Under the pieces are notes generated by a model. The model was not told the DNA's origin. It did no database searches and worked only from the letters and a program-made list of their open reading frames with translations. 64,000 nucleotides of DNA, from the NCBI GenBank assembly GCA_942490715.1, contig CALNYP010000047.1, forward strand, positions 4,744-68,743. The letters are read 5' to 3'. Below are positions 1 to 61,702 of this stretch, piece after piece (position 1 is the stretch's first letter; every line of letters starts with the position of its first letter). This DNA is from an uncultured bacterium (GTDB lineage Bacteria > Acidobacteriota > Polarisedimenticolia > Polarisedimenticolales > Polarisedimenticolaceae). A program made the position numbers and the translations under genes.

Positions 1-361
1 GCAATCCGACTGCGATTCCGTGGAGGATGCCATTCGTGCGGTGGAGATGTGTTCGACCGTGTGCGAGGACTGCCCGGCTACTACTACGTGCCCGGGACCA
101 TACTGCACCGATGGCGACGAGTTATCCTCGGTTGACAAAGCCATCGACCGATGCAAATTGCCGAGCGGTCAAATGTTCGAGTGTGATCTTGGCGACAACA
201 TCAACACCGTGACGTATGAGTGCGACCGCGATGCATGCTGTGAGCGGCTCGCCGCCCACGTGCATTTGCTGCGCCTCAGGAGCGACAAAGGTGGCACTGG
301 AATGCGAGGCGGCACAGACGGCCCTCTGCTTGGCGTACCCATGAACAACAGGAAGATACCC

Positions 362-1118
362 ATGAGAACAACCGCGATTTCCATTTCGTGTCTCGTGATG
401 ATGTTTCTCGCTGGCGGTTCCGCCTTCGCTGACTCACAGACTCATGATTGCTGCGATGCGGCGGCTCGCCCTCTCGATTGCCCGAACGGCGCCAGTTGCT
501 GCGAAGACACGACCTGGCAGTGTAACGATGAAGCCGGCTGGTCGACCTGCCCGGCAGATGGCACGGTCTGCTCGTGCGGGGGGATCAGGCGGCGGAACCT
601 GCGCCGAGGGGGAGTACTGCTTCCGAGAGAGCTTCGAGAGCCTCGACGATTGCTACCAGGTTGCCGACCTGGCAGGAGTATGCACGCTCACGACGCCAGA
701 CTGTTCGATGTGCAATATCACGTGCGGTTGCAACGGCATTACCTACCAGAACGCGTGCTCGGCGCAGGCAGTCACCGACCCGCACTTCTTCGGCGCCTGC
801 GGTTCGGAAGTCCGGGGCCTGAAGTTCGGGCACCCGTTGCACCCTACTTGGATGATATGGAGGCAGCAGGAGGACGCTCTCGCCTACAACGTCTACCGAA
901 AGGTGTACGAAGGAGTTCCTCCGACCGACCTTGGGTCATGTTTGCTGGCCAACTATTCACCGCAGGCGGCAATTCTGGACGACCCGGAACCAGGCGAGCT
1001 GTGGTTCCTGTCCGTAACTGCAGTGTACCCAACCGGGGAGGGGACCCCAGGCCGCCAGGGCGGTCCGCTGCCATGCGAACCCAAGGTGATCGCGGAGCGG
1101 TGCGGCGCCGGTTTGTAA
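362..1118 (+). pseudogene. Tandem copy 1 of the secreted Kazal-like / FN3-like-CTD protein gene, broken by a +1 frameshift near 587-590
   Basis: ATG at 362 gives MRTTAISISCLVMMFLAGG..., near-identical to copies 2 and 3 up to ...CSCGGI. Then 'atcaggcggcgga' replaces the 'atcgccggcgga' of the other copies (one extra nt). Homology continues in the frame of ORF 444..1118 (GGTCAEGEYC...CGCNGITYQNAC...AERCGAGL, stop TAA 1116-1118). Confidence 0.75.
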
Positions 1119-21392: not shown

Positions 21393-23207
21393 CTAGTTCG
21401 ACCCCACCACCGGCAGTGAGACCCGCGACGGGTACTTTTTCGAATGATAGATCCGGTTGTGGGCCACGACGCCCTCGGACTCGTCGTGATTCGCACCGCC
21501 GGTGTTCAGGTTCCTGGCGAAGCGCGGGAAGTTGCTGCTCGAGATCTCGACGCGGATCCGATGTCCGGCCGGGAAGTAGTTGCTGGTGACCATCGGGCTG
21601 AGGGTCAACGGGTAGACCTCGCCCGGTTTCATGAATACCTGCTTGTCGTAGCCCTCGCGGTAGCGGGCGCGCTGGATCGTCTCGTCGAGGTTGTACGCCG
21701 TTCCGTCGGGGGAGACGTCGATCAGCTTGACCGAGAAATCGGTGTCCTTCGCGTCGGAGCCGACGAACAGCTCGACCTCGATGAAGCCGCTGACCTCGAT
21801 CGCCTGCTCGAGCGGGGGCGAGGTGTAGACCAGGATGTCCCGCCGGGTCTCCTGCTCGCTCTGGTCGAACGACCCCCGGGCATCGACCGCTCCGCCGATG
21901 CAGCAGACACCGCCGCCCGAGGGACGGAACCGGCCGCCGTGGATCGTAGGTGAAGCCATCGAACCGCGGCCTTGCGCGGCTTTGCCGGCGACTCAGTCTG
22001 CCGTCGCCGAACAGACTGTTGGCGCCGGCATCGCTGTCCAGGTACCAACTGTGCATCGCGGTCGAACCCTGGGGCGGCCAACGGTCGGCGACTCGACCCA
22101 GCGGTTCGCGCCCATCAGGTAGTAACGGATCTTGGGATTCTCCTGCTCGAACGCTTGTTCATCGTCGGCCAGCCAGCGATCGAAGAACCCGTAGAGCAGC
22201 TTGTCGTAGTCCAGTCGGACATCGCCCATGTTGCGCTCGCCGACGATCGTCTCGCTCTCGGTCTGGAAGAACCTGCAGTGGGGCGTCGGGGCGACGATCG
22301 CGTACTGGTTGTTCGCGACCTCGGGATCGCCGGCGTTGTCGGTCACGTGGTTGAACAGCGCCAGGTTCGGGCCGATCGACACGTCGTACCAGGAGTTCAT
22401 CCAGAACGCCGGCACGCCGTATGTCCTCGTCGTCGTGGTACAGACCGCCCGTCGTACCAGGCCGGGTCGTCGGGGGTTGACGTGCGGATGAACTCGTCGT
22501 AGATCCCCTTCGGGCCGTCGACGTTCTTCATCAGGTCACCCAGGGGCAGGTGACGGATCGCCTTGACCCAGTCGACCTCGGGCATCTCCGGCGCCAGATC
22601 GAAGTAGTTCGACAGTCGGACCCGATCCTCGCGCGTCAGGCCCGCCGGCAACGACGGACGCTGGGTGTTCTGCACCTTGTAGAGCCAGGGGCCGAAGAAC
22701 ATCTGATCGACGCCGCCGCGGTACCAGTTGCCCTGCTCCCAGTACTCACCGACCTTACCGATGCCCGCGCCCGGCGCCATCGGGATCATCGCTGCGTGCG
22801 CCGGGTGGTCCATCGCCGCCAATGCCAGCTGCCACTCGGCCGAGGAGGAACAGCCGATCGTGCCGACCTTGCCGTTGGACCAATCCTGCCCCTCGATCCA
22901 GTTCAGTGCGTCGTACCCGTCGGTGCGCGGAAAACCGAGGATCTCCCACTCACCTTCCGAGAAGTACTTGCCGCGCTCGTTCTGGATCACGAAGGCAAAG
23001 CCACGCTGCAACGCCTCGTGGAGCAACAGCAGGCGCGATGTCGCGCATCGGCACGAGGATCTTCTTTTCCACGGTCGAGAGCTCTTCGACCTTTTCCAGC
23101 AGCTTCTTCTTCGACTCGTCGTCGAATGCGGCACTGATCGGGAGCAGCGGGAGCAGCAGGGCTGCCACCGCGAAGACGAGCAGAGTACGTCGCAGGCGCT
23201 GGGGCAT
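21393..23207 (-). pseudogene. CocE/NonD (X-Pro dipeptidyl-peptidase S15) family hydrolase, degraded
   Basis: Homology is split over at least five reading-frame segments. These are signal peptide + ...VPMRD (from 23207), FAFVIQNERGKYFSEGEW...GCSSSAEW, TYGVPAFWMNSWYD..., WPPQGSTAMHSWYLDSDAGANSL...[12 protein letters not shown] and [17 protein letters not shown]...RVSLPVV. Shifts lie near 22447, 22424, 22080 and 21915. An internal deletion of roughly 40-60 codons lies near 23035. Confidence 0.8.
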
Positions 23208-23372
23208 GGGATTCCTCGAGTCGCCTGGCGACGCGGGCGGGCCGTCGATCGGCCACCGGATGTACGCAGGAACTCAGCAGTGGGGCCCAGGAGTGTCGGA
23301 GGGCCCCGCGAGAAGCGGGACCCGGGCAGTCGGCGTGCGGCCAGCCCGGGCATGTGCAGGCTACCGGGTAAC

Positions 23373-24663: not shown

Positions 24664-26094
24664 TTGCTCTACGACCAGCCACATTTCCGGGCACAACCCG
24701 GCCGCGCCTGCCTCGGACTGGCCGGCATTCTGGCGCTGGCGGTCGGCTCGGCTCCGGTCCGCGCGGTCACCGACGAGGAGATCTTCCGCGATCTGCGTTT
24801 CAACTTCATCAACCCCGGAGGCCGTTCCCTGGGGATGGGCGGCGCGTTCATCTCGATCGCCGACGACGCGACCGCGGCCCAGGCGAATCCGGCCGGCCTG
24901 ACCAACGTGTTCGATCCTCAGTTCTTCCTCGAGCTGCGCCGGATCGATCCGGAGTCGGTCGAAACGGTCCGCAGCTTCCGCGACCCGTTCCGTCCCGACG
25001 AGGGCTTCGACGTCGTCGCCCGGACCGATTCGAGTCTCTCGACCAGCCCGACGTTCCTCTCCTACGTCGCACCCTACGGTCGCTTCTCGTTCGGCGTCTC
25101 CCGGCACGAACTGCTGGATGTCAACAACCGGACCGTCAGCAGCTACGGCTTCTTCGTCACCGAGGGCAGCGACCTGCGAACCGGCGAGGGACAGGTCGAG
25201 CTGTCGCTGACGAACTGGAACCTCTCCGCCGGCTACCGGATTCACGATCGCTTCCGGATCGGCGCGACCGCGTCGTACGGCGATCTGTCGATGAGTTCCC
25301 AGATCGTCAACACCTTCACCGACCCCACCGGTGCCGTGCTCGGCGACCCGGCGCTGGCCGGTAGCCGCTTCGAGGTCTACCGGACGACGATCGACGGCGC
25401 AGACACCGACTGGACCCTGACCGTCGGCGCACTGGTCAAGATCACCGAGCGGATCAAGGTCGGCGCGGTCTGGCGGCAAGGCGGATCCTTCTCCGTCGAG
25501 CAGGAGTTGACGGCACAGCCGGTCGACCGCTCGCTGCTTCCCGGCCGCATCGCCGAACAGGTCTACTTCAACGAGAGCGGCACGCTGTTGACCGCCGAGA
25601 ACACGGCGCATCGCTTCGAAACCCGGCTGAACATTCCCGACACCGTCGGTCTCGGCATCTCCTGGGTACCGCTCGACCGGCTGACGCTCTCGGCGGACGC
25701 GGTCAAGATCACCTACAGCGACCTGCTCGAGGGCTTCAACTCCCGGCTCAACATCCTGACCTTCGGCTTCCCCGAGGAGGAGCAGGCCGCCTTCACCGTC
25801 GACGATCAGACCAACCTCCACGTCGGCGCCGAGTACCTGCTGCCCCAGAAGGGCACGACGACCTGGGTCATCCGGGCCGGTTTCCACCAGGACAAGGACA
25901 GCCGGATCCGCGCCGACTTCGCCCCGGGCGATCCCGGGCTGGGCAGCAACGAGAATTTCCCGGGACGGGAAGACGACCAGCACTACTCGGCCGGCATCGG
26001 AGTGGTGCTGAATCAGCGCTTTCAGATCGACGCGACGGCAGATTTTTCCGACTTCGGCACCGAGGCAGTGGTATCTTTTATCTATTCGTTCTGA
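24664..26094 (+). CDS. Outer-membrane beta-barrel protein of the FadL/TodX/PorV superfamily
   Basis: Signal peptide ...GILALAVGSAPVRA. N-terminal hatch-like motif GGRSLGMGGAFISIADDATAAQANPAGL. Alternating amphipathic strands and a terminal aromatic (...VVSFIYSF). Non-ATG (TTG) start, so the start is uncertain. Confidence 0.75.
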   Translation: MLYDQPHFRAQPGRACLGLAGILALAVGSAPVRAVTDEEIFRDLRFNFINPGGRSLGMGGAFISIADDATAAQANPAGLTNVFDPQFFLELRRIDPESVETVRSFRDPFRPDEGFDVVARTDSSLSTSPTFLSYVAPYGRFSFGVSRHELLDVNNRTVSSYGFFVTEGSDLRTGEGQVELSLTNWNLSAGYRIHDRFRIGATASYGDLSMSSQIVNTFTDPTGAVLGDPALAGSRFEVYRTTIDGADTDWTLTVGALVKITERIKVGAVWRQGGSFSVEQELTAQPVDRSLLPGRIAEQVYFNESGTLLTAENTAHRFETRLNIPDTVGLGISWVPLDRLTLSADAVKITYSDLLEGFNSRLNILTFGFPEEEQAAFTVDDQTNLHVGAEYLLPQKGTTTWVIRAGFHQDKDSRIRADFAPGDPGLGSNENFPGREDDQHYSAGIGVVLNQRFQIDATADFSDFGTEAVVSFIYSF

Positions 26095-26105
26095 GGGGCG
26101 CGGCC

Positions 26106-27281
26106 GTGCTGCGTAGGCAAATCCCACTGCTGGTCTTGACCCTGACGATTCTCGCATCGTCGGCCCCGGGGATCCTCGCCCAGAAAACACAGCCGACCCA
26201 GTTCGTCACTCCGGACACGACGACGTTCACGATCTCCACCGGACTGCTGCTGCCCTGGGAGACCAAGAAGCACCGCGCCGGTACCTACGGTCCCGGGGCC
26301 GAGCTGATCCTCGACGACGGTGCGACCTCCAGCATCAAGATCGACGGGCTGCACAAGCTCGACAACCCCGGACAGTGGCTGTTCACGATGGCCACCGCCA
26401 GCGACCTCGACGGTCTGCTTCCGGAGCTGGCCGACCGTAACGACATCCTGCGCTACGACGGGGCCAGCGGTTTCACGAAGGTGTTCTGCGGCAGCACCAC
26501 CACGGATCCGGTCCCGCCGCGCTGCAACATCGACGCCGTCTATCTCGTCGGCGATGACGACAGCGACATCGTCGTCAGTTTCGACCAGTGCGGTGCAACG
26601 ATCCGGGGTGAGACCTACGAGGCCGCCGACCTGGTCCAGTTCACCCGCAGTGACCCGACCGACTGCAACGGCTGGAGCGTGGCAGGACTCGTCTTCGATG
26701 CCTCGGGCAAGATCCCCAGCAGCACCAACGTGATCGGAGCGTCCCGGGCGGGCAATCAGCTCATCCTGTCCCTCGACGTGGCCACCCACGTTCCGACCAA
26801 GGCCGGCTCGACGCAGTTCATCCCCGGCCAGCTCGTGCGCTGGGACGGGACCTTCTTCAGTCTGTACGAGAACCTGCCGGGCTGGCCGCAGAGCACCCAG
26901 GTCAACGCCCTGACCCTGCCCTCCGAGACGTGTCGCGGACTCGACGACGCCGACCCCGGCGACAGGATCGTCGATCTCTGCACCCGGGCCTGGACATCGG
27001 ACAGCGGGGGCCGGTTCGATAGCCTCGAGTGGCGGGTCGAGGCCGGCGCGCTGGCGTACAACGTCTATCGCAGCAACCTCAACGGAGCCGTCTTCGGTTG
27101 TCAGACACCGGAGCCCTTCGTCGATCGCCAGTACGTCACACCGGAGCTCCCCCCGAGCGATTCGGCCTTCTACTACCTCGTCACCGTGATCGACGGGATG
27201 GGCGAGGGTTCCCTGGGGAATGCATCGAGCGGCGCAGAGCGAACCAACTCTGCCCCATGTGGCGGCGGAACGGCACATTGA
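26106..27281 (+). CDS. Secreted uncharacterized repeat protein ending in the shared FN3-like C-terminal module
   Basis: GTG start 11 nt after the barrel gene. Signal peptide MLRRQIPLLVLTLTILASSAPGILAQ. Internal repeats (..DILRYDGASGF.., ..DLVQFTRSD.., ..QLVRWDGTFF..). C-terminus WRVEAGALAYNVYR...C...PPSDSAFYYLVTVIDGMGEGSLG...C. Confidence 0.7.
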   Translation: MLRRQIPLLVLTLTILASSAPGILAQKTQPTQFVTPDTTTFTISTGLLLPWETKKHRAGTYGPGAELILDDGATSSIKIDGLHKLDNPGQWLFTMATASDLDGLLPELADRNDILRYDGASGFTKVFCGSTTTDPVPPRCNIDAVYLVGDDDSDIVVSFDQCGATIRGETYEAADLVQFTRSDPTDCNGWSVAGLVFDASGKIPSSTNVIGASRAGNQLILSLDVATHVPTKAGSTQFIPGQLVRWDGTFFSLYENLPGWPQSTQVNALTLPSETCRGLDDADPGDRIVDLCTRAWTSDSGGRFDSLEWRVEAGALAYNVYRSNLNGAVFGCQTPEPFVDRQYVTPELPPSDSAFYYLVTVIDGMGEGSLGNASSGAERTNSAPCGGGTAH

Positions 27282-30200
27282 TCTCCGCGCCACGGTCCGC
27301 ACGTCGGGCCGCCCTGGGGATCGCGCTGCTGTGCGCGGCTCCGTCGTACTCTTCGCGCTCGATCCCTGCCGCGAACTCCTCGCTGACAACCGGACGGCTC
27401 TCGGCCTCCTTCACCGCTGACGGCGTCGAGATCCGGCCCTCGGGAGAGACTCCCGGCGACCAGTGGCAACTGCGAATCGACGGCTTCCGGCCCGGGGTGC
27501 TCGGCGAGGCCGGGGTCGTGATGCCGTCACTACCCGATGGCGATGGAACCTCCGTCGCGTACCGGCGACGGGAGGGCACCGAGAGCTGGAGCGCGACCCG
27601 GGAGGGACTCTCCGTACGGCTGGATCCCCGACTTCACGACGATCGATCCGGCTGGATCCTCGGCGTGCACACCGAGCTCGAGCTCCGGGATGTCACCGGC
27701 GGCGTCGCCTTCCTGCATCGAGGCCGACCGGTCGTCTCGTTGCGATCGGCCGACGACGGCTGGCGTGTCGGACTCTCGTCGTCACCAGCGCTGACTCCGG
27801 GTCGCCGATCCGTCGAGGTCTCCCCGGTGGGTTCGAGGGGCAGTACCTCGCCGACCCTGCAGCTGCGCGCCCTGGGCAGCGACACCGCACTGGCGGACGA
27901 GGTCCTGGCGACGGTGCCCCACTGGATCGTCGAGAGCAACCGCTCCGCGGCGACCTTCGGCGCGGCGGTCGCCACCGTGGGCGACGTGAACGGTGACGGC
28001 TACAGCGACGTCGTCGTCGGCTCCCCCACGTTCGCGTCGGGCGAACTCGACGAGGGGCGTGCGTTTCTCTATCGCGGATCGGCCGACGGTCTGTCGACCG
28101 CACCTTCGTGGACGATCGAGAGCAACGTCGTCGGCGCCCGCCTCGGTAGCGCCGTGGCCCCGGCGGGCGACGTCAACGGCGACGGCTACGCCGATTTCCT
28201 CGTAGCGGCCGACGCACTCTCCGCAGAAGTGACCAACGGCGGACGGGTGCTCCTGTTTCTCGGTTCCGCCGATGGCCCATCGACGACACCGGACTGGACC
28301 GCCGACGGCAGCCAGCAGGGTGAGCGGTTCGGCAGCTCCATCGCCCCTGCCGGCGACGTCGACGGCGACGGCTATGACGACGTGATCGTCGGCGCGCCGT
28401 TCCACGACGGCACGGTCGCCGACGAGGGACGGGCGGTGCTCTACCTTGGATCGCCGGCCGGCCTGGAAGTCACCGCTGCCTGGTCCGTCCTCGGAGCGCA
28501 GGACAACGCCCAGTTCGGCAGTGCCGTCGCCGGGGTCGGCGATCTCGACGGTGACGGCCACGCCGATGTCGCCGTCGGTGCGCCGGCGTTCAACGGCGTG
28601 TTCTTCGCCTCGGGCCGTGTATTCCTGTTTCGCGGGGCCGCCGATGGCCCCGCCGCCATGGCCGACTGGACCGCCGACGGCGACACGGTCTTCTCCTCCT
28701 TCGGCGCGGCGATCGCGCCGATCGGCGACGCCGGCGGCGACGGTCACGCCGATTTCGCGGTCGGTGCACCGACCGCGGGAACGACCGGCAAGGTTCACGT
28801 ATTCGTCGGCGCCGCAGGCGAGCCCCTCGCCGGTCCGGTGCTCGGCGGGCCGTCAGGCTCCGAACAGTTCGGTGCCACCGTCGCCACCGCCGGAGACGTC
28901 AACGGCGACGGCTACGCCGACCTGCTCGTCGGCGATCCGCTCTACGCCGACGGAGAGCTGGACGAGGGTGGTGCGTTCCTGTTCCTCGGTAGCGCAAACG
29001 GCCTCTCCACGGGAATGGCCTGGCAGGTGGAATCCGACGAGCCGAACGCCTCGTTCGGCGCCGCGGTCGGAACCGCCGGCGACGTCGACGGCGACGGCAG
29101 GAGCGACGTCATCATCGGCGCACCTCGTGCCGACAACGGCCAGGCCGACGAGGGGCGCGCCTTCTCCTACCTCGGCTCGACGACCCCGCCGGGGCGTGTC
29201 CCGGGCTGGGAGGCGACCGGGTTCTCCTTCGGCGAGCTGTTCGCCGGAGCGCTGGACTCGGCCGGCGACGTCAACGCCGACGGCTTCAGCGACGTGATCG
29301 TCGGAGCACCGTTCTACGCCGGTGGCCAGTCCGCCGAAGGGCGGGCGCTGGTCTACCTGGGTTCGAGCGAGGGGCTGGGAGCCGGGGCGCACTGGACCTT
29401 CGAACCGAACCTCCCCGTCGCCCTGGCCGGACGCTCGGTGGCCGGTGTCGGCGACGTCAACGGTGACGGCTACGCCGATGTGGCCGTCGGGGCTCCCAAC
29501 GTCAGCGGCACGCTGCCGGCTTCCGGACGGGTCTACCTGTTCCTCGGGCCGCTGGTCTCCGGTCAGGCACCGGACTGGCACGCCGACGGCTCGATCTCGA
29601 ACGGCGGATTCGGGCTGGCGATCAGCGGCGCGGGCGACGTCAACGGCGACGGCCTGGCCGACCTGTTGATCGGCGCGCCGGGACCGATCGAGGGGCAGCC
29701 GGCACGGGGTCGCGCCGAGCTTTACCTCGGCACCCACGATGGACTCGCGCAGACAGCGGCCTGGAGTTACGAGGGAAGCACGACCGTCTCGCGCTTCGGC
29801 AGCGCGGTCGCCTCGGCCGGCGACGTCAACGGCGACGGCTTCGGTGACGTCGTCATCGGCGCCCCGACGGTGGCGACCGAGTTGATTCGCGGCGAGGTGC
29901 TGCTGTTCCTGGGCTCCGTCGACGGCCTCTCCAGAGAGCCGGTCTGGCGCGCCGAATCGAGCCAGTCTCGATCGCTGTTCGGTTCGTCGGTCGCCGGAGC
30001 CGGCGACATCGACGGCGACGGTTTCAGCGACGTCGTCATCGGCGAGAACAACTTCAGCGGCGGCGAGCTGAGCGAGGGACGGGCCTCGCTTTACCTCGGC
30101 TCGCCGGCGGGTCTGTCCGGCACTCCGATCTGGGAGGTCGTCTCGGCCCAGGCCAACGCGCTGCTGGGAAGCGACGTCTCCGCGGCCGGCGACGTCGACG

Positions 30201-31576
30201 CCGACGGCTACGGCGATCTGCTGATCGGCCTCGCCGGCTACACCGACGACTTCGAACGCGAGGGTCAGGCGCGGATCTACCTCGGTGGCCCGGACGGCCC
30301 GTCGACGACCGCGGTCTGGTCCGTCACCGGCCGTTTCTCCGACGCGAAGATGGGCGACGCCGTCTCGTTCGCCGGTGACGTCGACGGAGATGGTGCCGCC
30401 GACGTGGTCGTCGGCGCGCCCCAGCACTTCGGCTTCCGTGGGCTGGCCCAGCTCTACTCGGGCAATCGCGGACCGGGACGGGCCCTGCCGATCACCCAGC
30501 GCAGGCTGCGGACCCGGCGGCCCCTCGGTATCGGGTCGACGGTGGACGGTGTCGGCGCCTTCCGCATGCATGCGCTGGCGGCGAGCCCCGCCGGCCGCGC
30601 CCGGGTCGGACTGGAGTGGGAAGCCCGCCCGGTCGGCACCGTCTTCGGCGGCACCTCTCCGGAGGTCGAACCGCTGGAAGACACCGGTGCGCCGACCGCC
30701 GCGGGCAGCGTGACCGTGGCCAATGTCGTCGCCGACGGCCTCGAAGCTGCGACGGCGCTGCACTGGCGCGCGCGATACCGCTCGGCGTCGCCGTTCTTCC
30801 CGCACTCGATCTGGCGCTCGGCGCCTCATCTCAGCATGGCGGAAACCCGCTTCCGGACCGCAGGGGTCGCACCCGCTCCGGCGTTCGGCCTGATCGGTCC
30901 CGCCGCAAACGAGCTGGTGTTTCCCGACGCGATTCCGCTGATCTTCTCCTGGCTGACCGGCGGCCTGAGCAACGTGCGGCTCGCGTGGTCGCTCAACCCG
31001 GAGTTCGTCGACGCCCTGGTGACCAGCCCGACGCTGTCGACGGCGAGCGACGGGGCGATCGCCGTCTACCGGCCCGACGACGCCCTGTGGCTCCAGATCC
31101 TGCGACTCGCCGCGGGCAGCCCGGAGATCCGTGACGTTCCGGTCTTCTGGCGCATCGAGGCCGACGGTGCGCCGACGCCGGACCTGCGGGTGCTACGCAT
31201 CGCGGCGGCCCGGGCCCCCGAGGTGACCTTCCCCCCGGACGGCTCCGAGTTCCTCGCGATCCAGCCACCGACGCTGATCTGGGAGCCGAATCACACCGAA
31301 GCCTACCGGATCGTCTTCGCCGCCGACGCCTCGCTGTCCGGCGAGGTGATCGAGACCAGCGCCGGTTACGACCTGACGGAACCGATCTACGACGTGCCGG
31401 ACGCCCTGTGGGCCCGGATCGTCGAACTGGCCGGTTCCAGCGGAAACCAGGTGCATTACGTGGTTTTCGCCCGGGACTCCCTGGACCGGATCACCTGGAG
31501 CCGGACCCGGACTCTGCGTATCATCCAGAGCAGTGCTACGCTCGGTAGCAGTCCGCCCGGCGGGAAACGCCGGTGA
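27257..31576 (+). CDS. Giant secreted FG-GAP (integrin-alpha-like) repeat protein
   Basis: ATG 27257 (MWRRNGTLIS...AALGIALLCAAPS) overlaps the previous gene by 25 nt. There are 14 FG-GAP units, each with a Ca-binding loop GD(V/I/L)(N/D)GDG(Y/F).D..(V/I)GAP. The C-terminus carries two copies of an about 110-aa domain (...SW...LAWS...DALW..I..LA...). Confidence 0.9.
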   Translation: MWRRNGTLISAPRSARRAALGIALLCAAPSYSSRSIPAANSSLTTGRLSASFTADGVEIRPSGETPGDQWQLRIDGFRPGVLGEAGVVMPSLPDGDGTSVAYRRREGTESWSATREGLSVRLDPRLHDDRSGWILGVHTELELRDVTGGVAFLHRGRPVVSLRSADDGWRVGLSSSPALTPGRRSVEVSPVGSRGSTSPTLQLRALGSDTALADEVLATVPHWIVESNRSAATFGAAVATVGDVNGDGYSDVVVGSPTFASGELDEGRAFLYRGSADGLSTAPSWTIESNVVGARLGSAVAPAGDVNGDGYADFLVAADALSAEVTNGGRVLLFLGSADGPSTTPDWTADGSQQGERFGSSIAPAGDVDGDGYDDVIVGAPFHDGTVADEGRAVLYLGSPAGLEVTAAWSVLGAQDNAQFGSAVAGVGDLDGDGHADVAVGAPAFNGVFFASGRVFLFRGAADGPAAMADWTADGDTVFSSFGAAIAPIGDAGGDGHADFAVGAPTAGTTGKVHVFVGAAGEPLAGPVLGGPSGSEQFGATVATAGDVNGDGYADLLVGDPLYADGELDEGGAFLFLGSANGLSTGMAWQVESDEPNASFGAAVGTAGDVDGDGRSDVIIGAPRADNGQADEGRAFSYLGSTTPPGRVPGWEATGFSFGELFAGALDSAGDVNADGFSDVIVGAPFYAGGQSAEGRALVYLGSSEGLGAGAHWTFEPNLPVALAGRSVAGVGDVNGDGYADVAVGAPNVSGTLPASGRVYLFLGPLVSGQAPDWHADGSISNGGFGLAISGAGDVNGDGLADLLIGAPGPIEGQPARGRAELYLGTHDGLAQTAAWSYEGSTTVSRFGSAVASAGDVNGDGFGDVVIGAPTVATELIRGEVLLFLGSVDGLSREPVWRAESSQSRSLFGSSVAGAGDIDGDGFSDVVIGENNFSGGELSEGRASLYLGSPAGLSGTPIWEVVSAQANALLGSDVSAAGDVDADGYGDLLIGLAGYTDDFEREGQARIYLGGPDGPSTTAVWSVTGRFSDAKMGDAVSFAGDVDGDGAADVVVGAPQHFGFRGLAQLYSGNRGPGRALPITQRRLRTRRPLGIGSTVDGVGAFRMHALAASPAGRARVGLEWEARPVGTVFGGTSPEVEPLEDTGAPTAAGSVTVANVVADGLEAATALHWRARYRSASPFFPHSIWRSAPHLSMAETRFRTAGVAPAPAFGLIGPAANELVFPDAIPLIFSWLTGGLSNVRLAWSLNPEFVDALVTSPTLSTASDGAIAVYRPDDALWLQILRLAAGSPEIRDVPVFWRIEADGAPTPDLRVLRIAAARAPEVTFPPDGSEFLAIQPPTLIWEPNHTEAYRIVFAADASLSGEVIETSAGYDLTEPIYDVPDALWARIVELAGSSGNQVHYVVFARDSLDRITWSRTRTLRIIQSSATLGSSPPGGKRR
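27940..30470 (+). repeat. In-frame array of 14 FG-GAP repeats (two predicted 7-bladed propellers)
   Basis: I counted 14 loops: VGDVNGDGYSD, AGDVNGDGYAD, AGDVDGDGYDD, VGDLDGDGHAD, IGDAGGDGHAD, AGDVNGDGYAD, AGDVDGDGRSD, AGDVNADGFSD, VGDVNGDGYAD, AGDVNGDGLAD, AGDVNGDGFGD, AGDIDGDGFSD, AGDVDADGYGD, AGDVDGDGAAD. Confidence 0.85.
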
Positions 31577-31595
31577 TCTCCGGCCGAGGGGCCCG

Positions 31596-33254
31596 ATGCG
31601 ACGATTCGGAACCAGTCACGCCGGCCTGACCCTGGTGCTGCTCGCCGCACTGGCGGCCGGAGTTGCGTGGGCCGGAATCGACGATGCCTACCGGCACTAC
31701 CGCAAGTCCGAGAGCAAGCTCGAACGCAACGAGCTGGACGAGGCGCTGGAGCTGGTCGAGCGGGCGATCAAGGCGCACCCCGAGTCCGGTGTGTTCCAGA
31801 TGGGCATCCAGCCCCGGGACTACTTCCCCTACTACCTCCGCGGCATGATCCGCCTGCGGATGGGCGAGGCGGATCTGGCCCTGGAGGACTTCCTCGACGA
31901 GCAGTCGCGGGGCGCGATCGAGCCCTCCTCGCCGCTGAACGCCGCGCTGTCGAGCCGCATCGATGAGGCGCGGGCGCTGGACAACGAGCGCCCCGAGGTG
32001 CGCATCACCTCGACCGAGATTCGCGAGTTCGAGTTCGTCAACCGCCACGGCGCCGAGATCGAGGAGGCGGAACTGCTGATCAGCGGCACGGCGGAGGACA
32101 CCCGCAGCGGAATCCGTTCGATCTCCGTCGCCGGCCGCGAGGTCGCCCTGACCGCCCGGGACGGCGTGCATCATTTCAACGAGACGATCCGGGTCGACGC
32201 CCGCTCGACCGAGCTTCCGGTGATCGTGCAGGACGCCGCGGACAACGTCACCACCTTCGATCATCCCATCGAGTTGCCGGCACTCTCCCTCGGCGAGCAG
32301 GCCGAGCGCATCCACGCCGTGATCGTCGGCGTCAACGAGTACGACCGCGGACACCTCGACGAGAACGGCGATTGCACCGAGGAGCTGCGCAGCAGTTGCG
32401 ACGGCCGCTTCACCTGCCACGCCCTGAGTGATCTGAGCTATTCGGTCGCCGATGCCCAGCGGGTCGCCGAGTTGCTCTACCGGCGCGGCGTTCCGGAGCG
32501 AAACGTCACCCTGCTCGTCAGCGGCGGCGGCACGAACGACGCCACCCGCGAGAACGTCGAGGCGGCGATCGCCCGGGCCCGGGAGGCCGACGGCGACAAG
32601 GTGCTGTTCTTCTTCTCCGGCCACGGAATGCTCTCGCGAGATCAGGACAACCTGATGATCCTCGAGAACACCCGGACCTGGGAGTGCGCCGATCGCACCG
32701 ACGACGAGGAAGAACCGCAGGCCGACGATCCGGTCCGGCGCGCGTCGCCCCTGGAAGAGACGGCGATCAGCGTGGCCAGCGTGGCGCGGCAGCTCAAGGA
32801 GAGTCGTTCCCCCGAACGCTACATCATTCTCGATGCCTGCCGCACGCCGGTGACCGCGACCAAGAGTGTCGGGACCAAGGAGATCCCCGGTTTCTCCGCC
32901 GAGGGGATCAAGGGCATCCGGCTGGTCCTCGAAGAGGTCGAGGAGGATCGCGGCCGCGACCCGATCATCTTCTACTCGACCCTCGAGCGTAAGGTCAGCG
33001 TCGAGTGGAACACCAAGGGCAGCGGCTACTTCACCTGGTTCCTGATCCAGGGTCTGCGTCGCAACCTGGCCCTCGACGAGCTGAAGCGTTTCGTCCAGGC
33101 CGGAGTCAAGCAGCAGACCCAGGAAGACCTGTGCGGCCGGGCCCAGGATCCGGAGCTGTGCGCCTACCTCCAGGCGCCGTACCTGCAGCTACCGCCGGAG
33201 CTCGAGCAGAACTACGACCTCCAGGCCCAGACCTACATCCTCGGCGGGAAGTAG
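31596..33254 (+). CDS. Extracytoplasmic caspase-like (peptidase C14) protein with N-terminal TPR-like and Ig-like regions
   Basis: ATG 31596 lies 19 nt after the FG-GAP stop. Signal peptide MRRFGTSHAGLTLVLLAALAAGVAWA. Caspase core IHAVIVGVNEYD..., catalytic His in FFFSGHG and Cys in IILDACR. Confidence 0.85.
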   Translation: MRRFGTSHAGLTLVLLAALAAGVAWAGIDDAYRHYRKSESKLERNELDEALELVERAIKAHPESGVFQMGIQPRDYFPYYLRGMIRLRMGEADLALEDFLDEQSRGAIEPSSPLNAALSSRIDEARALDNERPEVRITSTEIREFEFVNRHGAEIEEAELLISGTAEDTRSGIRSISVAGREVALTARDGVHHFNETIRVDARSTELPVIVQDAADNVTTFDHPIELPALSLGEQAERIHAVIVGVNEYDRGHLDENGDCTEELRSSCDGRFTCHALSDLSYSVADAQRVAELLYRRGVPERNVTLLVSGGGTNDATRENVEAAIARAREADGDKVLFFFSGHGMLSRDQDNLMILENTRTWECADRTDDEEEPQADDPVRRASPLEETAISVASVARQLKESRSPERYIILDACRTPVTATKSVGTKEIPGFSAEGIKGIRLVLEEVEEDRGRDPIIFYSTLERKVSVEWNTKGSGYFTWFLIQGLRRNLALDELKRFVQAGVKQQTQEDLCGRAQDPELCAYLQAPYLQLPPELEQNYDLQAQTYILGGK

Positions 33255-33260
33255 ACCGGC

Positions 33261-36200
33261 TCAGAGGCAGAACTTGCCGGTCCGCGGCTGGCCGTCGGAG
33301 CCGACCCCCAGGGAGCCGAAACCGACCGGGCAACCGTTGCGGGCCCGGGCCAGGTAGTAGAAGACGGTGTCCGGCGGCGGCAGCGTGGCGTCGATCGCCG
33401 TCGCGCCACCGATCTGGATCGAATCGATACACTCGGTCGCGGTGCTGAAATCGGCGGGGTCCGTCGTGCGCAACAGGTGCATCGTCAGCACGCCGCCGGG
33501 TTCGACCGGGGGCAGCCAGCGCAGCGTCGTCAGGCTGAGAAACGTCAACGGGTTGATCTCGCCGGGAGTGGCCCAGGCATCGGCATTGGCGTCGGTACAG
33601 TCGCCGGCGTCCGGGCCGTACCCGTCGGGCGCTTCGCAGGCGACGACATGGTCATCGGGGTCGCCGAACCCGTCGCCGTCGAAGTCGGCATACCAGTCGC
33701 TCGCGTCCTCCGCGCTGCTCTCGTCGATCTCGCCGTCGCAGTCGTTGTCGATACCGTCGAAGCAGACCTCGGGAGACTCGACCATCGGAATGCAGTCGTC
33801 GATCAGCGTGCCGTTGACGCATTGCAGGTTGCCGGTCGTCTGGCAGTTGCCTTCGCCGCAGAAGGTCACCGTCGGGACGTAGTCGTCGTCGGCCAGGTCG
33901 TCGCAGTCCTCGTCGACACCGTTGCAGGTGTCGTCGGGCTGGGGCTCACAGATCACCGTGACGCGCCCGGACGGATCGCCGAGCAAGATCATCTCCCGCA
34001 CCATGTTGATCGACACGGGCTCGGTCAGGAAGGTCTCGACCAGGGCGCCGGAGGTCGCCGTGCCCAGCGCCTCGACGCGGTCGGTGAACATCGTGCGATA
34101 GAAGATGCGCTGCAGGCGGTCGAACTCGCCGAGGAAACCCAGCGCCGACGGCGCCCACATTCCCAGTGCCCCTCCCGAGGCGCTGTTGTGGAAGGCCTCG
34201 GCGAGACTCGTCGTGCTGAACGGGTCTCCGATGAGACCGTTGAGACAGTTCAGCGCGACGACGAACGGCAGCCTGGTGAAGTTCGCCAGCGCGGCGGCGT
34301 CGTCGATCCCGAAGTAGGGGCCGTTGATTCCGCTGTCGGCCCAGAATCCGACGTTGCCGTGCCCGAGGAACGAGACCATCGCCGCGCCCTCTTCGATATC
34401 CGTGGAGATCGATGCGGTGGTCGCGCCCTCCCGGCGGTAGGCACTCTTGACCGTGTAGTGGTCGGGAAGGAACTGCGCCGCCTCTTCGAGGGAACTCTCG
34501 AAGGCCGCGTCGTTGGAGGCGACCTGCAGGACGTCCTTGAACCAGCGGCGGCTCTCCGGCTGCGCCTCGTAGGCCAGCACCTTGTCGATCATCAACCCGA
34601 TGCCGTTGGCCGAGTCCCGGGAGAACCGGCCGATCCCGACCTCGGGGAGGTCGTCGCCGTTGATCGAGCCGAACCAGTTGTCGGACATCGTCTCGCCCTG
34701 GGCCGAGGTCACGGTGAAGTGCGTCGGCATCTGGTGCTGGTGATTCGGCCGGTCCAGCCAGTTCTGCGGGTCGAGGTTCGGTACGCCGACCAGCATCGTG
34801 TAGGCCAGCGCCGGCGGGGTCCAGTGGGTGTAGGCGTAGGCGATCACGTCGCGAATGGCGACGTCGTCGACGTTGCCGCCGGCGAACTCGTCGGCGATGT
34901 CGGTCAGGCCGGCCAGGACGACCCGGAGCCCCTGGGCTTCCCGGGCCGCGACGAGATCGGCGAGCGCCGGCTCCCAGCCATCGGGCACGATGATCAGCAG
35001 GTCCGCGGCGTTGGCCGGGTCCCGCAGGTTCGAGACGACATCCAGCTCGAAGCCCGAGGCGGTCAGGCGGCCCGAGTCGCCGGCGAGCCAGTACCGCGCT
35101 CCCGCCGGGCTGCTCTCCTCGAACGAGACGGTGAACGGGCCGGATCCGAGAACGTCGAAATCGACGATCTCGACCGGTGCGAGAGGATTCGAAATGTCGA
35201 GCACGACCGGATCGAAGGCGGAGGTGAAGCTGGTCACCGGGTAGCGCAGCAGTCCGCCCGGGCTCGTCAACCGCAAGCGGTTGGAGATCGCGCGCAGCTG
35301 GCGCGGGTACTCGATCTCGATCCAGTCCAGGTAGTAGGCGTCGGGAAAGGCGATCTCCTGGTAGTCGATGCGGAAGGCGTTCGCGCCGGCCTGAAACAGC
35401 GTGCCGTCAAAGGGGAAGTCGGCGGTGTGGAAGGTCCGGCCGTTCCAGCTCGTCTCGCCGATCACGGTGCCGTTGACTCGCAGGCGTACCGAGTGGTCCG
35501 GATCGCCGATCGTGTCGGTGCGCCCGAAGAACAACGCACGGAACCTCGCCGGATAGGAGGTGACCTCGAGGCCGGGCAACGAGGCCGAGTGCGTCTTGGT
35601 CGTCACTCGCGGCGGGTTCGGGTTGTCCTCGAACCAGACCCAGTAGTAATGCGGGTCGCCGACCTGCGCCGGCGCGCCGAGGGTGTAGATGTCGTTCCCC
35701 TCCTCGAAGTGGATCGTCTCGGGGAAGACGTCGGGAACGCTGGCGGTTCCCGGCGGCGCCGAGCGGGTCGGAAAGCGCAGGCCGGGAGAGGGCATCTCGT
35801 CGATGAAGAAGACGTTCTCGCTGGAGAAGCGGCTGTTCGACGGGAAGTCCCGGCTGTTCGGGAAGCCGTAGAACTCCAGCTCATCCTGGGATCCGAAGAC
35901 GCCGTCGTCCTCACCGGTCACCCGGCAGGGGATCGGTTGACCGCGAAACGAGACCTGCAGGTTTCGCGGATCGACGGCATCGATCTCGAAACCGGCCCCG
36001 GCCAGCTGGCTCCGCGTGACGCGGTAGAGGCCCTCCTCGGCCACCCGGACCTTGACCCCAGGGCGAACGGGAAGAACAAGGCCACCCTTCGGCGGCGCAA
36101 CCGATTCCGGTGCCGGCCGGGAGTCGACCTGGGCCAGCGTGCGATGGTTCAGGATCCCGCGGCGGGCGATCCGTGCCTCGGGACCCGCAGGTGGCATCCG

Positions 36201-36797
36201 GGCGAAACCACGGGACGCACCGAAGTCGACCTGGAGGTCGATCGAGCGTGTGATCTCGATCCGTTCCTCGCCGGCGTTCCAGATCACCGGGTGAATCCGC
36301 AGGCGAGCGATGCGCAGACCGCGGTAGCGCAACAACTCCATCGAAACCGGCTGGGCCGGCCAGGGAGCATCGCGGCGAACTCGCAAGTGTGGCGGTTCCG
36401 CCGGCAACGCCTCGTCGATCTCCGCCGTCTCGGCCACAGCCGAATAGACCGGCCTCCCCTCGTGACCGACGAGAGGACCGAGCTGATACGAGTACCGGGG
36501 CTCGGGCCCTTCGGGTATCGCGATCGACACGACGATCGACGGGAGCTGGGGCGTGCCGGGTTCGAGCCACGGGTCGAGCCCGTCGATCGTCACAGTGCGG
36601 CTGCCGTCGACGGTCGTGCCGACGGTGACCGCATCCTCGGGAATCGTGACGGACAGACGTATCCCCTGCGCATCTTCGTGCACGATCTTCAAATGGCGCG
36701 AACCCGCATCCGCCGACGCCGTGACACTCGCGAGAGCAAGTGCGAGCACGGAAGCTGCCAGGCCACGCGAGATGTCTCGAATAAAGCTCATCCCCAC
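33261..36797 (-). CDS. Gingipain-like peptidase C25 family protein (PorU-like architecture) with MopE-like Cys/Asp motifs and the shared C-terminal module
   Basis: 1178 aa with a signal peptide. C25-type blocks (LLIIVPDGWEPALADLVAAREAQGLRV..., IRDVIAYAY). Clan CD dyad SFLGHGN ... VVALNCLNG, with His and Cys 38 residues apart. Then CNGVDEDCDD, CFDGIDNDCDGEIDE and DFDGDGFGDPD motifs. C-terminus LRWLPP...C...PPPDTVFYYLARARNGC..G.GSLG...C. The start is GTG 36797 or ATG 36791. Confidence 0.85.
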   Translation of the reverse strand: MGMSFIRDISRGLAASVLALALASVTASADAGSRHLKIVHEDAQGIRLSVTIPEDAVTVGTTVDGSRTVTIDGLDPWLEPGTPQLPSIVVSIAIPEGPEPRYSYQLGPLVGHEGRPVYSAVAETAEIDEALPAEPPHLRVRRDAPWPAQPVSMELLRYRGLRIARLRIHPVIWNAGEERIEITRSIDLQVDFGASRGFARMPPAGPEARIARRGILNHRTLAQVDSRPAPESVAPPKGGLVLPVRPGVKVRVAEEGLYRVTRSQLAGAGFEIDAVDPRNLQVSFRGQPIPCRVTGEDDGVFGSQDELEFYGFPNSRDFPSNSRFSSENVFFIDEMPSPGLRFPTRSAPPGTASVPDVFPETIHFEEGNDIYTLGAPAQVGDPHYYWVWFEDNPNPPRVTTKTHSASLPGLEVTSYPARFRALFFGRTDTIGDPDHSVRLRVNGTVIGETSWNGRTFHTADFPFDGTLFQAGANAFRIDYQEIAFPDAYYLDWIEIEYPRQLRAISNRLRLTSPGGLLRYPVTSFTSAFDPVVLDISNPLAPVEIVDFDVLGSGPFTVSFEESSPAGARYWLAGDSGRLTASGFELDVVSNLRDPANAADLLIIVPDGWEPALADLVAAREAQGLRVVLAGLTDIADEFAGGNVDDVAIRDVIAYAYTHWTPPALAYTMLVGVPNLDPQNWLDRPNHQHQMPTHFTVTSAQGETMSDNWFGSINGDDLPEVGIGRFSRDSANGIGLMIDKVLAYEAQPESRRWFKDVLQVASNDAAFESSLEEAAQFLPDHYTVKSAYRREGATTASISTDIEEGAAMVSFLGHGNVGFWADSGINGPYFGIDDAAALANFTRLPFVVALNCLNGLIGDPFSTTSLAEAFHNSASGGALGMWAPSALGFLGEFDRLQRIFYRTMFTDRVEALGTATSGALVETFLTEPVSINMVREMILLGDPSGRVTVICEPQPDDTCNGVDEDCDDLADDDYVPTVTFCGEGNCQTTGNLQCVNGTLIDDCIPMVESPEVCFDGIDNDCDGEIDESSAEDASDWYADFDGDGFGDPDDHVVACEAPDGYGPDAGDCTDANADAWATPGEINPLTFLSLTTLRWLPPVEPGGVLTMHLLRTTDPADFSTATECIDSIQIGGATAIDATLPPPDTVFYYLARARNGCPVGFGSLGVGSDGQPRTGKFCL

Positions 36798-36897
36798 CCG
36801 TTCCCATCCTTATTACGATGGGCCGGCCGGGCCAGCAACCGATATTCGGCGCTTCGCGGGCTTTCCACGGCCCGCTGGACCGCAGGGCGAGACAGCA

Positions 36898-38019
36898 TCA
36901 GTCCCGCAAGACCCGGTAATAGACGATCTCCCCGGGTGGCGGCGTATCCAGCCAGTTCCCGTCGGCGGAGTGTCCGACGAGACTCCCTGGAGCGTCGATC
37001 AGCGCCGGGTCGAACGAACGACGGACCTCGACGAGGGTCGGACAGTCGTTCCAGTCCAGCACGACCGCCTCGGGCACGAGGCCACGATTGACCCGTAGCC
37101 CGAGCCCGTCCCGGGGCACGCGGTGGGTCGACCAGACGATCGCGTTGACGAGAATCTGGAGGTTCGGTCCGGCAGGGTCCAGCGCCGACGGCTCGTATTC
37201 CCCCGGCTGGTAGACGACGACCGCGCCGCGCCACCCGGGACGACGATTCGTGAAGCCGAGCAGGTGGGTCGTTCCCGACTGATCGTAGTTGCTCGCGAAC
37301 AGGATCTCGACGTCGGTGGCGGACGGGTTGAGCTCGAACGACAGGTAGCGCTCGTCGGGAACGTTGGTGAAGAAGGGGTAGTCGTCGTCGGGAACTCCGC
37401 GACCGGCGTCCTCGTAGCGCACCAGCGGTTCCGGGTCGAGCTCGTTGCAGGCGACGAAGTGCAGCGGCGAGACGGAGATCACCCGTTGCCCCTCGCCGGT
37501 ACTCCAGACGACGGCGCCGGTCGCCGTGCCGCCCAGCAGCTGCTGGATGCTCTCCTTCCCCGGAGTCAGGTAGATGCCGTGATGAAAGCTGACGACGCCT
37601 CCGCCTCGGATGACAAACGTCTCGACCGCTGCGGCGAACGCCTCCTGGCGGTCGCCTCCTTCGGGCCCCGCAGGGATCCGGTGGGCGAAGTAGACCAGGA
37701 CATCGTAGGCCAGCGGGTCGTGATGCGGCCGCAGCAGCGCGGCGGTGGCCTGTTCGATCTGATCGGTGGCGATCTCGAGCAGCGGATCCGGGCCGGCGTC
37801 GAACCGCAGCCCCGAGGAGGCCAGGGCCAGGGCTGCCGACAGCTCTCCGGGCTGGGTCAGCTCCTCGGGCGCCAGCCCGTGGGGGTTGACCTCGTCGCTG
37901 ACGATCAGCACGCGCAGGGGTCGGTGAACGGGCAGGTTCGCGGCAAGGCTGACGCCGGCGGAGCTGCCGCCGACCAGGATGCCGGCCAGACAGCCGACCA
38001 CGAGGAGAGGTCGCATCAC
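36898..38019 (-). CDS. Secreted ThuA-like (class I glutamine amidotransferase-like fold) protein with a short degenerate copy of the C-terminal module
   Basis: Signal peptide present. ThuA-like blocks (RVLIVSDE..., YDVLVYFAH, FVIRGGGVVSFHHG). The C-terminus is ...LDWNDC...NWLDTPPPGEIVYYRVLRD. The function call is tentative. Confidence 0.6.
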   Translation of the reverse strand: MMRPLLVVGCLAGILVGGSSAGVSLAANLPVHRPLRVLIVSDEVNPHGLAPEELTQPGELSAALALASSGLRFDAGPDPLLEIATDQIEQATAALLRPHHDPLAYDVLVYFAHRIPAGPEGGDRQEAFAAAVETFVIRGGGVVSFHHGIYLTPGKESIQQLLGGTATGAVVWSTGEGQRVISVSPLHFVACNELDPEPLVRYEDAGRGVPDDDYPFFTNVPDERYLSFELNPSATDVEILFASNYDQSGTTHLLGFTNRRPGWRGAVVVYQPGEYEPSALDPAGPNLQILVNAIVWSTHRVPRDGLGLRVNRGLVPEAVVLDWNDCPTLVEVRRSFDPALIDAPGSLVGHSADGNWLDTPPPGEIVYYRVLRD

Positions 38020-42370: not shown

Positions 42371-43934
42371 ATGTCCAGGAACCAGGTGATATTCGCGGCG
42401 CTGGCGGTCGGCCTGGCGCTCTCGACTGCGCAGGCTCTCGATATCGACCGCAGGCTCGTCGATATCCGCTGGGTCGAGTACCCCGAGGCGTCGATCGTCG
42501 ACCTCGACTTCGGCGCCCTCCGCGCCGAGGCCGCCCCGGGTGGGGTCTCGATCCGCGACCCGATCCTGCGCACGACCAGCACGGTCTGCGTTCCCGAGGG
42601 GAGCGACAACGTGCTGCGCGACGCCGTCGAGGTCGAGACCTTCTACTACGAGATCCCCTACGAGGCCGGCGCCGGCGTTCTCGTCGTCCGCGACGCCGAC
42701 GATCAGCCCGTCTTCACCTCGTGGATCGACGCCCTCGGCGCCAGCGAGCGCTACGGTCACGGCGACTGTCGCTTCTGGAGAGAATCCGCGCTGGTGGAGT
42801 CGTTCGCCGGTGCCGACCTGCGAGACGCGATCGAGGCCCAGGTGCGGCTGTACACGAAGCGAGTCGGCCTCGAGCGTATCGATCAGGCCTTCTTCTTTCA
42901 GGTCGACGAGGCGCGGATCCCGATCTACGACGTGACGGACCGCAAGCGGGATTACTCGGACCTCCACCTGGCAGCTTCCCGCGCCGAGGCCGGCTATCGC
43001 GCGCTGAACCGTGCCGGCATCACTGCCGAGGACGCGGGACGGACCGACCTCGAGCGTGCCGCCGAGACCTGGGCCGACGCACTGAAGGAAGCGGACCTGG
43101 CGAACAAGAACGCCCGGATCAATCGCAGGGTCGCCGCCAGGCTGCACGAGAACCTCGGTGTGGCGCGGATGACCCTCGGTGAACCGGAGGCCGCCGTGAT
43201 TCACCTCGAAAAGGCGCTGCAGCTGGCGACGGTGTCGGTCTCGCGCACCGGCGGCACGGGCAACGATGACCTGCTGAAACGTGCGAAGGAGCGGGCGCGA
43301 CGCAGCGACCGCAATCGAGAGATCGACAGCGGCAATCTGGACGTCGAGGGGTTGATGTTCCACACCGATCGCTTCCGGGGCCACATCCCCCTGGTGCTGG
43401 TCGACGGTTCGGAGCTGACGGCGTTCGAGGAGGAGCACATCGCGTTCTTCGCCTCGTCGACCCTGGGCGAGGCGGCCCGGGAGGTCGAACAGCGAGACGC
43501 GGCGATCGCCGATGGCCGCGTCAACCGTTACGACAGCATGGTCTCCCACACCGCGACCCAGGGCTTCGTTCTGTTCATCACCAAGTACCAGGCCGAACTG
43601 ACCGACTTCCCCCCGGAGATCACGCAGATCCGGCATCTGAACCGGCTGCGACTGACCGGCCACGGCTTCACCGGCGTACCGGAGACGATCGACGATCTCG
43701 CAGCGCTGGAAGTGTTGAACCTGGCGAACAACGCGATCGCAGATCTGCCCCGGAGATCGGCAACCTGTCCAAACTGACGCGGCTCGATCTGACGAACAAC
43801 CGGATCTCGACGCTGCCGACGAGATCGCCAACCTCTCCGCGTTGCGACAGCTGACGCTCAAGGGCAACCCGCTGGCCGCCGGCGAACTGGACCGGCTGCG
43901 CCTGCTGCTGCCGCGTTGCAAGATCAAGCTCTGA
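42371..43934 (+). pseudogene. Secreted TPR-like + leucine-rich-repeat protein; the LRR tail is interrupted by two single-nt deletions (or assembly errors)
   Basis: SD + ATG 42371 and a signal peptide. LRR units LEVLNLANNAIADLP | PEIGNLSKLTRLDLTNNRISTLP | DEIANLSALRQLTLKGNPL...RCKIKL are readable only after -1 shifts at the C-run 43748-43751 and at 43818. The restored frame stops at TGA 43932-43934. Confidence 0.7.
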
Positions 43935-61674: not shown

Positions 61675-61702
61675 GCGCAGAATTATAGTGACGGTTCGGC
61701 GA

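Follow-up and report, generated by a model that had tools for sequence, protein, structure and literature searches.

A Cys-braced FN3-type module on secreted proteins of an uncultured Acidobacteriota bacterium belongs to a family that occurs at all positions of its carriers

A 64,000-nt stretch of DNA from an uncultured bacterium of the Polarisedimenticolaceae (Acidobacteriota; GenBank assembly GCA_942490715.1, contig CALNYP010000047.1, positions 4,744 to 68,743 of the forward strand), hereafter the window, encodes several secreted proteins that end in the same module. This module is a mobile extracellular domain of the fibronectin type III (FN3) type, 100-115 residues long and Cys-braced, and it belongs to a large family without a Pfam-A or NCBIfam model. 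The family appears to have been shuffled among Sec-exported proteins of Acidobacteriota and of other uncultured bacteria from environmental metagenomes, where it usually adjoins Cys-rich linkers (MopE or Dicty_CTDC-like) or calcium-binding thrombospondin type 3 (TSP3) linkers. Its copies are found at the N-terminus, internally, in tandem and at the C-terminus. An earlier note on the window had read the module as a sorting or anchoring tag. Since its place in many secreted proteins may be the start, the middle or the end, it is very unlikely to be a C-terminal signal dedicated to sorting.

Five copies on three architectures in the window

Within the window, the module closes a Kazal-like inhibitor-like protein encoded three times in tandem (K1-K3), an uncharacterised protein of 391 aa (P26106) and a C25 peptidase. 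The copies were scored with a family hidden Markov model (HMM) of 70 sequences, none of them from the window, against 784 sequences: the 772 six-frame open reading frames (ORFs) of the window and 12 C25 homologues. The highest score belongs to P26106 (gene 26106-27281, + strand), whose copy spans 26961-27278 (53.6 bits, E 9.5e-16); that of the C25 peptidase (gene 33261-36797, 1178 aa, - strand) spans 33264-33611 (46.6 bits, E 1.4e-13). Divergent copies end K1 (777-1115, +; 26.8 bits, E 1.9e-7), K2 (1563-1901, +; gene 1149-1904; 25.6 bits, E 4.6e-7) and K3 (2349-2681, +; gene 1935-2684; 25.4 bits, E 5.1e-7). The resemblance noticed earlier by eye is significant for these five copies under profiles free of window sequences (E 9.5e-16 to 5.1e-7). 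For P26106, the interval first given, 27030-27281, covers the part from the Trp to the stop codon, but the domain starts about 70 nt further upstream, near 26961.

A second, external HMM was built from eight modules of four proteins described below (P0002, P0003, P0080 and P0148) and run on the same 772 ORFs. It recovers the C25 peptidase with 55 bits (E 3.5e-16), P26106 with 41 bits (E 1.2e-11) and K1, K3 and K2 with 15, 14 and 10 bits, respectively (E 1e-3 to 0.04); no further window ORF obtained a score. Pairwise BLAST across the architectures is weak, at 27-34 bits (P26106 against C25, 34; K against P26106, 27), and it is the sequence profiles, not these pairwise comparisons, that establish kinship among them. 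Twelve aligned copies have an invariant Trp, mid-domain Cys, Pro, two Gly and last Cys, in agreement with the conserved cysteines of the first description. The P26106 module has 'FYYLV' and 'GSLGNASSG' in common with the internal copies of P0080 and P0148.

The earlier note had counted five to six otherwise unrelated secreted proteins, the sixth being a ThuA-like protein (gene 36898-38019, -) with a supposedly shortened copy at 36901-37131. All six proteins translate as it described. The ThuA-like tail, with 2.6 bits (E 6.3), is nevertheless not a demonstrable member of the family; only a hand-made +1 frameshift, chosen after the fact, lifts its score to 10 bits (E 0.03), and we rejected it as a copy. 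Profile scans of the six-frame ORFs yielded no sixth copy in the window. With K1-K3 being tandem paralogues and no significant score for the ThuA-like tail, the window contains five copies, and its independent architectures number three instead of six.

Within the ThuA-like protein (36800-36960, -), a stop codon comes right after 'GEIVYYRVLRD', and the +1 frame reads on as GSCGTDAVSPCGP, which resembles the 'CG...C(P)' end of the module. The tail may be a decayed or mis-assembled module.

The LepA of the window shares 82% identity with that of MAGs labelled Acidobacteria/Acidobacteriota and 78% with that of a Thermoanaerobaculales MAG, which places the source in the Acidobacteriota. The window has about 68% G+C, and third-position G+C reaches 0.85-0.88 in P26106, C25 and ThuA, the level of real genes here; it is lower, 0.71-0.73, in the K genes. 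Plausible signal peptides are seen by inspection at the start of K2, K3, P26106, C25 and ThuA.

K1-K3 (362-2684, +) are tandem copies of a small, Cys-rich secreted protein, with 89-96% DNA identity (89% for K3 against K2); as judged from their sequences, they are a recent tandem triplication. The K1 gene, at about 362-1118, is frameshifted near 580-610 and has its open frame at 444-1118: in a tblastn search, residues 1-83 of K2 match frame 2 (362-610) and residues 73-251 match frame 3 (579-1115). The public gene call for K1 is a fragment of 136 aa (P0053). The K proteins bear a Kazal-like CGCNGITYQNAC motif that Pfam does not detect.

Fold and family assignment

Up to E=10, Pfam-A and NCBIfam return nothing relevant for the module, the strongest family members included, in agreement with the initial remark that no named family was known for it. 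Pfam fn3 (PF00041) matches no window protein and no isolated module even at E<=10, a word-indexed protein search with the P26106 module gave no match, and we found nothing on this domain in the literature. A profile made from window copies only (A1) was searched exhaustively with HMMER against 1.84 billion representatives and matched 7273 proteins at E<=1e-3. Giant proteins head this list, with as many as 44 matches each in internal tandem arrays, repeats that Pfam calls fn3. A profile of 12 sequences (A3) matches 3mpc_A of the PDB, an 'Fn3-like protein', at E 5.5e-4.

We obtained AlphaFold models of two modules, both on shallow alignments of 12-13 sequences. The P26106 module is predicted as all beta, with a predicted local distance difference test score (pLDDT) of 74 and a predicted template modelling score (pTM) of 0.68; the K2 module is also all beta, with seven strands, at a pLDDT of 62. 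When both models were compared with the PDB by Foldseek, the top 50 matches were all FN3 domains (3mpc, titin, myomesin, integrin beta4, fibronectin), with TM scores of 0.4-0.57, probabilities up to 1.00 and E values of 0.02 or above. The C-terminal domain (CTD) from type IX secretion systems (T9SS), one of the comparisons that the earlier note had recommended, is absent from the top 50 for either model.

Profile-level homology to recognised FN3 domains and all-beta models with FN3 matches in Foldseek both place the module in the FN3 superfamily, bearing out the FN3-like nature first read from its strand motifs. Profiles and models support well the predicted fold class, an FN3-type beta-sandwich; they do not support finer detail. 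Like bacterial FN3 domains (PF00041, for instance 3mpc of Clostridium thermocellum), the module measures about 100 aa, has a Trp in strand B, 'Y.VYR' in strand C, 'YY.V.A' in strand F and a predicted 7-strand sandwich, gives reciprocal profile matches and Foldseek matches, and serves as an accessory on secreted enzymes. In contrast to them, it lies below the reach of the Pfam fn3 model, has the conserved mid-domain and last Cys, usually with an N-terminal 'DC' and a 'CG' after strand F, and is habitually flanked by TSP3 or Cys-rich MopE segments.

The family outside the window

Two large proteins, P0080 (1344 aa) and P0148 (2023 aa), carry three internal copies each, interleaved with TSP3 repeats, which were recognised by Pfam TSP_3 in P0080 and by inspection in P0148. 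The N-terminal region of P0148 is subtilisin-like on inspection, and a cluster mate of P0080 is annotated 'thrombospondin type 3 repeat-containing protein [Acidobacteriota bacterium]'. Their copies follow the pattern 'CDCAP..L.W....A..Y.VYKGR......HTC.......D...P..G..FYYLV...NCFG...LG.ASSG..R.....C'. The closest relatives of the module lie inside TSP_3/MopE surface proteins of Acidobacteriota and relatives. The C25 peptidase of the window resembles these in having a MopE-type motif directly upstream of its module, whereas P26106 and the K proteins have no TSP3 repeats and carry the module alone as their last domain.

The family was sampled without positional bias by scanning metagenomes with a degenerate DNA motif for YN[VI]Y...FYYL[VI] in high-GC codons. 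Among the 64 loci obtained, many of them on contigs truncated upstream, 58 hold an HMM-confirmed module of the same Cys pattern. The metagenomic consensus runs from an N-terminal 'DC.P' through 'W', 'YNVYRG', a mid Cys, 'D...P..G..FYYLV' and 'CGES.LG' to a final 'C(P)'. The carriers are unrelated to one another: sedolisins, NHL propellers, sortilin/BNR-like, FG-GAP, DUF1800 and TSP3+Lcl_C proteins, many of them with plausible signal peptides. More than one module-bearing ORF is present in 11 of 60 loci, some of these ORFs being tandem paralogues like those of the window, so that the genes show a tendency to cluster. One locus, L035, encodes at 2-937 (+) a protein that is homologous to the N-terminal portion of P26106 (E 8e-22) and has a module at its end (28 bits), beside a second module-bearing gene.

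After removal of duplicates, 49 distinct metagenomic ORFs remained, with 59 modules; ten ORFs have two. The module ends the protein in 22 of the 49, typically as '...CP-stop'. Another 17 run on for 6-140 residues past it, mostly in TSP3 repeats, and the remaining ten for over 140 residues. At least six of these ten (L021, L011, L031, L046, L055, L033) have the module directly after the signal peptide, preceding DUF1800 or TSP3+Lcl_C regions. The same sequence subtypes are found at all positions. The strictly C-terminal position first reported is therefore true of the window, where it holds for five copies out of five, but of only 22 of the 49 distinct metagenomic carriers. The earlier note had named as its own refutation an ordinary internal FN3 domain with no positional bias; internal arrays, with up to 44 matches per protein, come close to that description, and an enrichment at protein ends (about 45%) remains.

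The C25 peptidase, the barrel and their neighbourhood

The C25 peptidase matches Pfam Peptidase_C25 at E 1.5e-64, and its best match among PDB sequences is gingipain R (E 1e-8). Just before the module it has a Cys-rich, sub-threshold match to Cu-binding_MopE (22.9 bits, cut-off 27). It scores 179 bits with NCBIfam PorU2 (NF052324, cut-off 450) and 174 bits with PorU, the T9SS sortase (NF033707, cut-off 420), below both cut-offs; as these alignments span about 700 residues, its architecture can be described from the sequence as PorU-like.

A FadL/Toluene_X-type outer-membrane barrel (24664-26094, +; Pfam Toluene_X, E 9.6e-14) ends 12 nt upstream of P26106. With NCBIfam PorV_fam (PorV/PorQ, NF033709) it reaches 43 bits (cut-off 90) over its N-terminal 34 residues only, and with PorVQ2/PorV2 (NF052325) 28 bits (cut-off 325).

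Both genes belong to a cluster of secreted or surface genes at 24664-38019, in which the barrel, P26106, an FG-GAP protein and a caspase-TPR protein converge on the C25 and ThuA-like genes. The FG-GAP protein, with 13 repeats, lies downstream of P26106 and likely starts near 27257, overlapping the end of P26106; the caspase(C14)-TPR protein is also downstream. The best NCBIfam matches in the cluster, each of them well under its cut-off, are to the 'PorU2/PorV2 putative type IX sorting' models.

Among 31 C25 homologues, only two, P0002 and P0003, which are closest in type, carry the module, and P0003 runs on for about 70 residues past it. Eight others (P0004-P0011, about 46% identity) have, as their last 100 or so residues after TSP3-like Asp-rich repeats, a variant B tail of the pattern 'L.W....PC.LYRVY......RYLVVG...GGEGPWGHF(EP)'. 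This tail is FN3-like by eye but not significant with either module HMM, and we did not retain it as a module. More distant homologues carry other immunoglobulin (Ig)-like domains.

The co-distribution with the barrel/C25 pair that was expected of a tag did not materialise. The 64 metagenomic module loci (about 450 kb in total) contain no homologue of the barrel and none of the C25 peptidase; the lone weak match to the C25 profile, in L009 (19.7 bits), falls on a module- and TSP3-bearing ORF, not a peptidase. The one homologous locus that was retrievable, L001, is syntenic and has a Toluene_X barrel 8 kb away, which is not homologous to the window barrel at E<=1e-3; L001 has no module. Genome contigs searched with a profile of the C25 alignment yielded a single, distant locus (L002, 27% identity). 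The T9SS core genes looked for (SprA/Sov, GldK/L/M/N, PorU, PorV) are absent from the 64-kb window, which is part of a contig of 153,531 bp.

Other genes of the window

An X-Pro dipeptidyl-peptidase (S15/CocE-NonD) at 21393-23353 (-) appears split, with the Peptidase_S15 part in ORF 22397-23353 and PepX_C in ORF 21393-21959, about 440 nt apart; a frameshift, pseudogene formation or faulty assembly may be the cause. A single ORF of 868 aa at 59110-61716 (-) combines an amino-acid kinase (aspartokinase-like, with an ACT domain) and an Orn/DAP/Arg decarboxylase, and looks like a LysC-LysA-type fusion. At 42371-43777 (+), a protein with TPR and leucine-rich repeats has weak, sub-threshold matches, through the latter, to the NCBIfam models of the Xanthomonas type III secretion effectors XopL and XopAC.

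Discussion

Given the homology, fold class, conserved cysteines, positional distribution, carrier diversity and signal peptides observed here, we find it fairly probable that the module works as a whole in the following manner. Carriers would be exported via their own signal peptides through Sec; the module would fold outside the cytoplasm, with its cysteines probably paired in disulfides, and stay on the mature protein. There it may act as a stable distal unit for binding or spacing, for example by keeping an enzyme or inhibitor attached to a polymer or to the cell envelope. A preference of about 45% for the C-terminus would be expected of an accessory binding or spacer module that follows a catalytic or propeller domain and a Cys-rich or calcium-binding linker. 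Such enrichment is typical of accessory domains and identifies no tag.

Several observations weigh against this interpretation. All five window copies sit at the C-terminus, and the share of distinct carriers that end exactly at the last Cys is a real bias that the interpretation does not fully explain. The module genes of the window lie near a PorU-like peptidase and a FadL/PorV-like barrel. The structural models are of moderate confidence (pLDDT 74 and 62) and their Foldseek E values are weak (0.02 or above). Finally, the motif-based sample covers only family members with that motif and high-GC codons.

The module might instead retain its carriers non-covalently at the surface, by binding the cell's own lipopolysaccharide, capsule or exopolysaccharide and so anchoring enzymes and inhibitors without a sortase. 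Enrichment at protein ends, presence on hydrolases, propellers and inhibitors, proximity to calcium-binding TSP3 stalks typical of surface adhesins, and conserved cysteines suggestive of a rigid extracellular fold are all compatible with this. However, it is a special case of the accessory binding or spacer role, not clearly separable from it, and a generic spacer or binding role accounts just as well for the tandem and N-terminal copies; we regard surface retention as possible but unlikely.

A type IX-like arrangement is less probable again. The C-terminal copies would be sorting and attachment signals akin to T9SS CTDs: a PorV-like barrel would shuttle the cargo, and the PorU-like C25 peptidase would cleave the module off and attach the cargo while keeping its own copy, as PorU does. 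The module has features in common with T9SS CTDs of type A (TIGR04183) and type B (TIGR04131). In both cases a beta-sandwich of similar size ends diverse secreted proteins as well as a PorU-like C25 peptidase, with a FadL-family barrel nearby; T9SS CTDs, too, are 7-stranded Ig-like sandwiches (PMC11285876). In the window all five copies are terminal, the peptidase that aligns with PorU2 and PorU over about 700 residues itself ends in the module, and the barrel with the PorV/PorQ-like N-terminal motif directly precedes P26106; 22 of the 49 distinct metagenomic carriers also end at the module.

Yet T9SS CTDs always lie at the extreme C-terminus, whereas the same module subtype is N-terminal, internal or tandem in more than half of its carriers. 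The curated CTD models (TIGR04183, TIGR04131 and relatives) match neither the whole proteins (E<=1) nor the isolated modules (E<=10), and Foldseek returned FN3 domains only. PorU and PorV scores stay far under the curated cut-offs (420-450 and 90), no core gene accompanies the pair within 64 kb, and neither the peptidase nor the barrel has a homologue near the 64 module loci. In addition, 29 of the 31 C25 homologues have no module, and the barrel of the sole syntenic locus is not homologous. The host is an Acidobacteriota bacterium, and in a survey T9SS was confined to the Bacteroidetes, where 60 of 97 genomes had it (PMC4793230); our literature search found nothing on T9SS in Acidobacteria or on the PorU2/PorV2 naming of NCBIfam. 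A small probability remains for the arrangement, owing to the PorU-like and FadL-like genes nearby and to carriers that end exactly in '...C(P)-stop'.

A narrower version, to which we give slightly less credence still, is that in some Acidobacteriota the C-terminal copies would be what a PorU-like C25 transpeptidase and a PorV-like FadL barrel recognise, the internal copies being ancestral and non-signal. If true, surface attachment in the manner of T9SS would occur outside the Bacteroidota, through a CTD type that has no sequence relationship to types A and B.

That unrelated FN3 domains with common strand signatures were taken for one family, as the pairwise scores of 27-34 bits in a tiny database, the thousands of ordinary FN3 domains matched by the window profile and the 25-27 bits of the K copies might suggest, is hardly credible given independent family HMMs that match P26106 and C25 at E 1e-13 to 1e-16, two invariant cysteines, a 'FYYLV...G.G.LG.ASSG...C' block in common with P0080 and P0148, and the same Cys pattern confirmed in 58 of 64 motif-selected loci. 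Tags of the exosortase or rhombosortase type (PEP-CTERM, GlyGly-CTERM, MYXO-CTERM) were discarded: the five tails end soluble and Cys-containing, with no hydrophobic helix, and the NCBIfam sorting-domain models match neither the window proteins nor the isolated modules.

The present analysis removes a tempting inference, that of a novel signal for sorting linked to a PorU/PorV-like pair outside the Bacteroidota, which is unsupported. The module would bear on the evolution of type IX-like surface attachment only if the minority sorting interpretation were true. Its practical value lies in annotation: a recurrent domain of about 110 aa is present on many large secreted proteins, both of environmental metagenomes and of Acidobacteriota MAGs, and has no Pfam or NCBIfam model. 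With a curated HMM it could be annotated on proteases, propellers, DUF1800 proteins and TSP3 adhesins.

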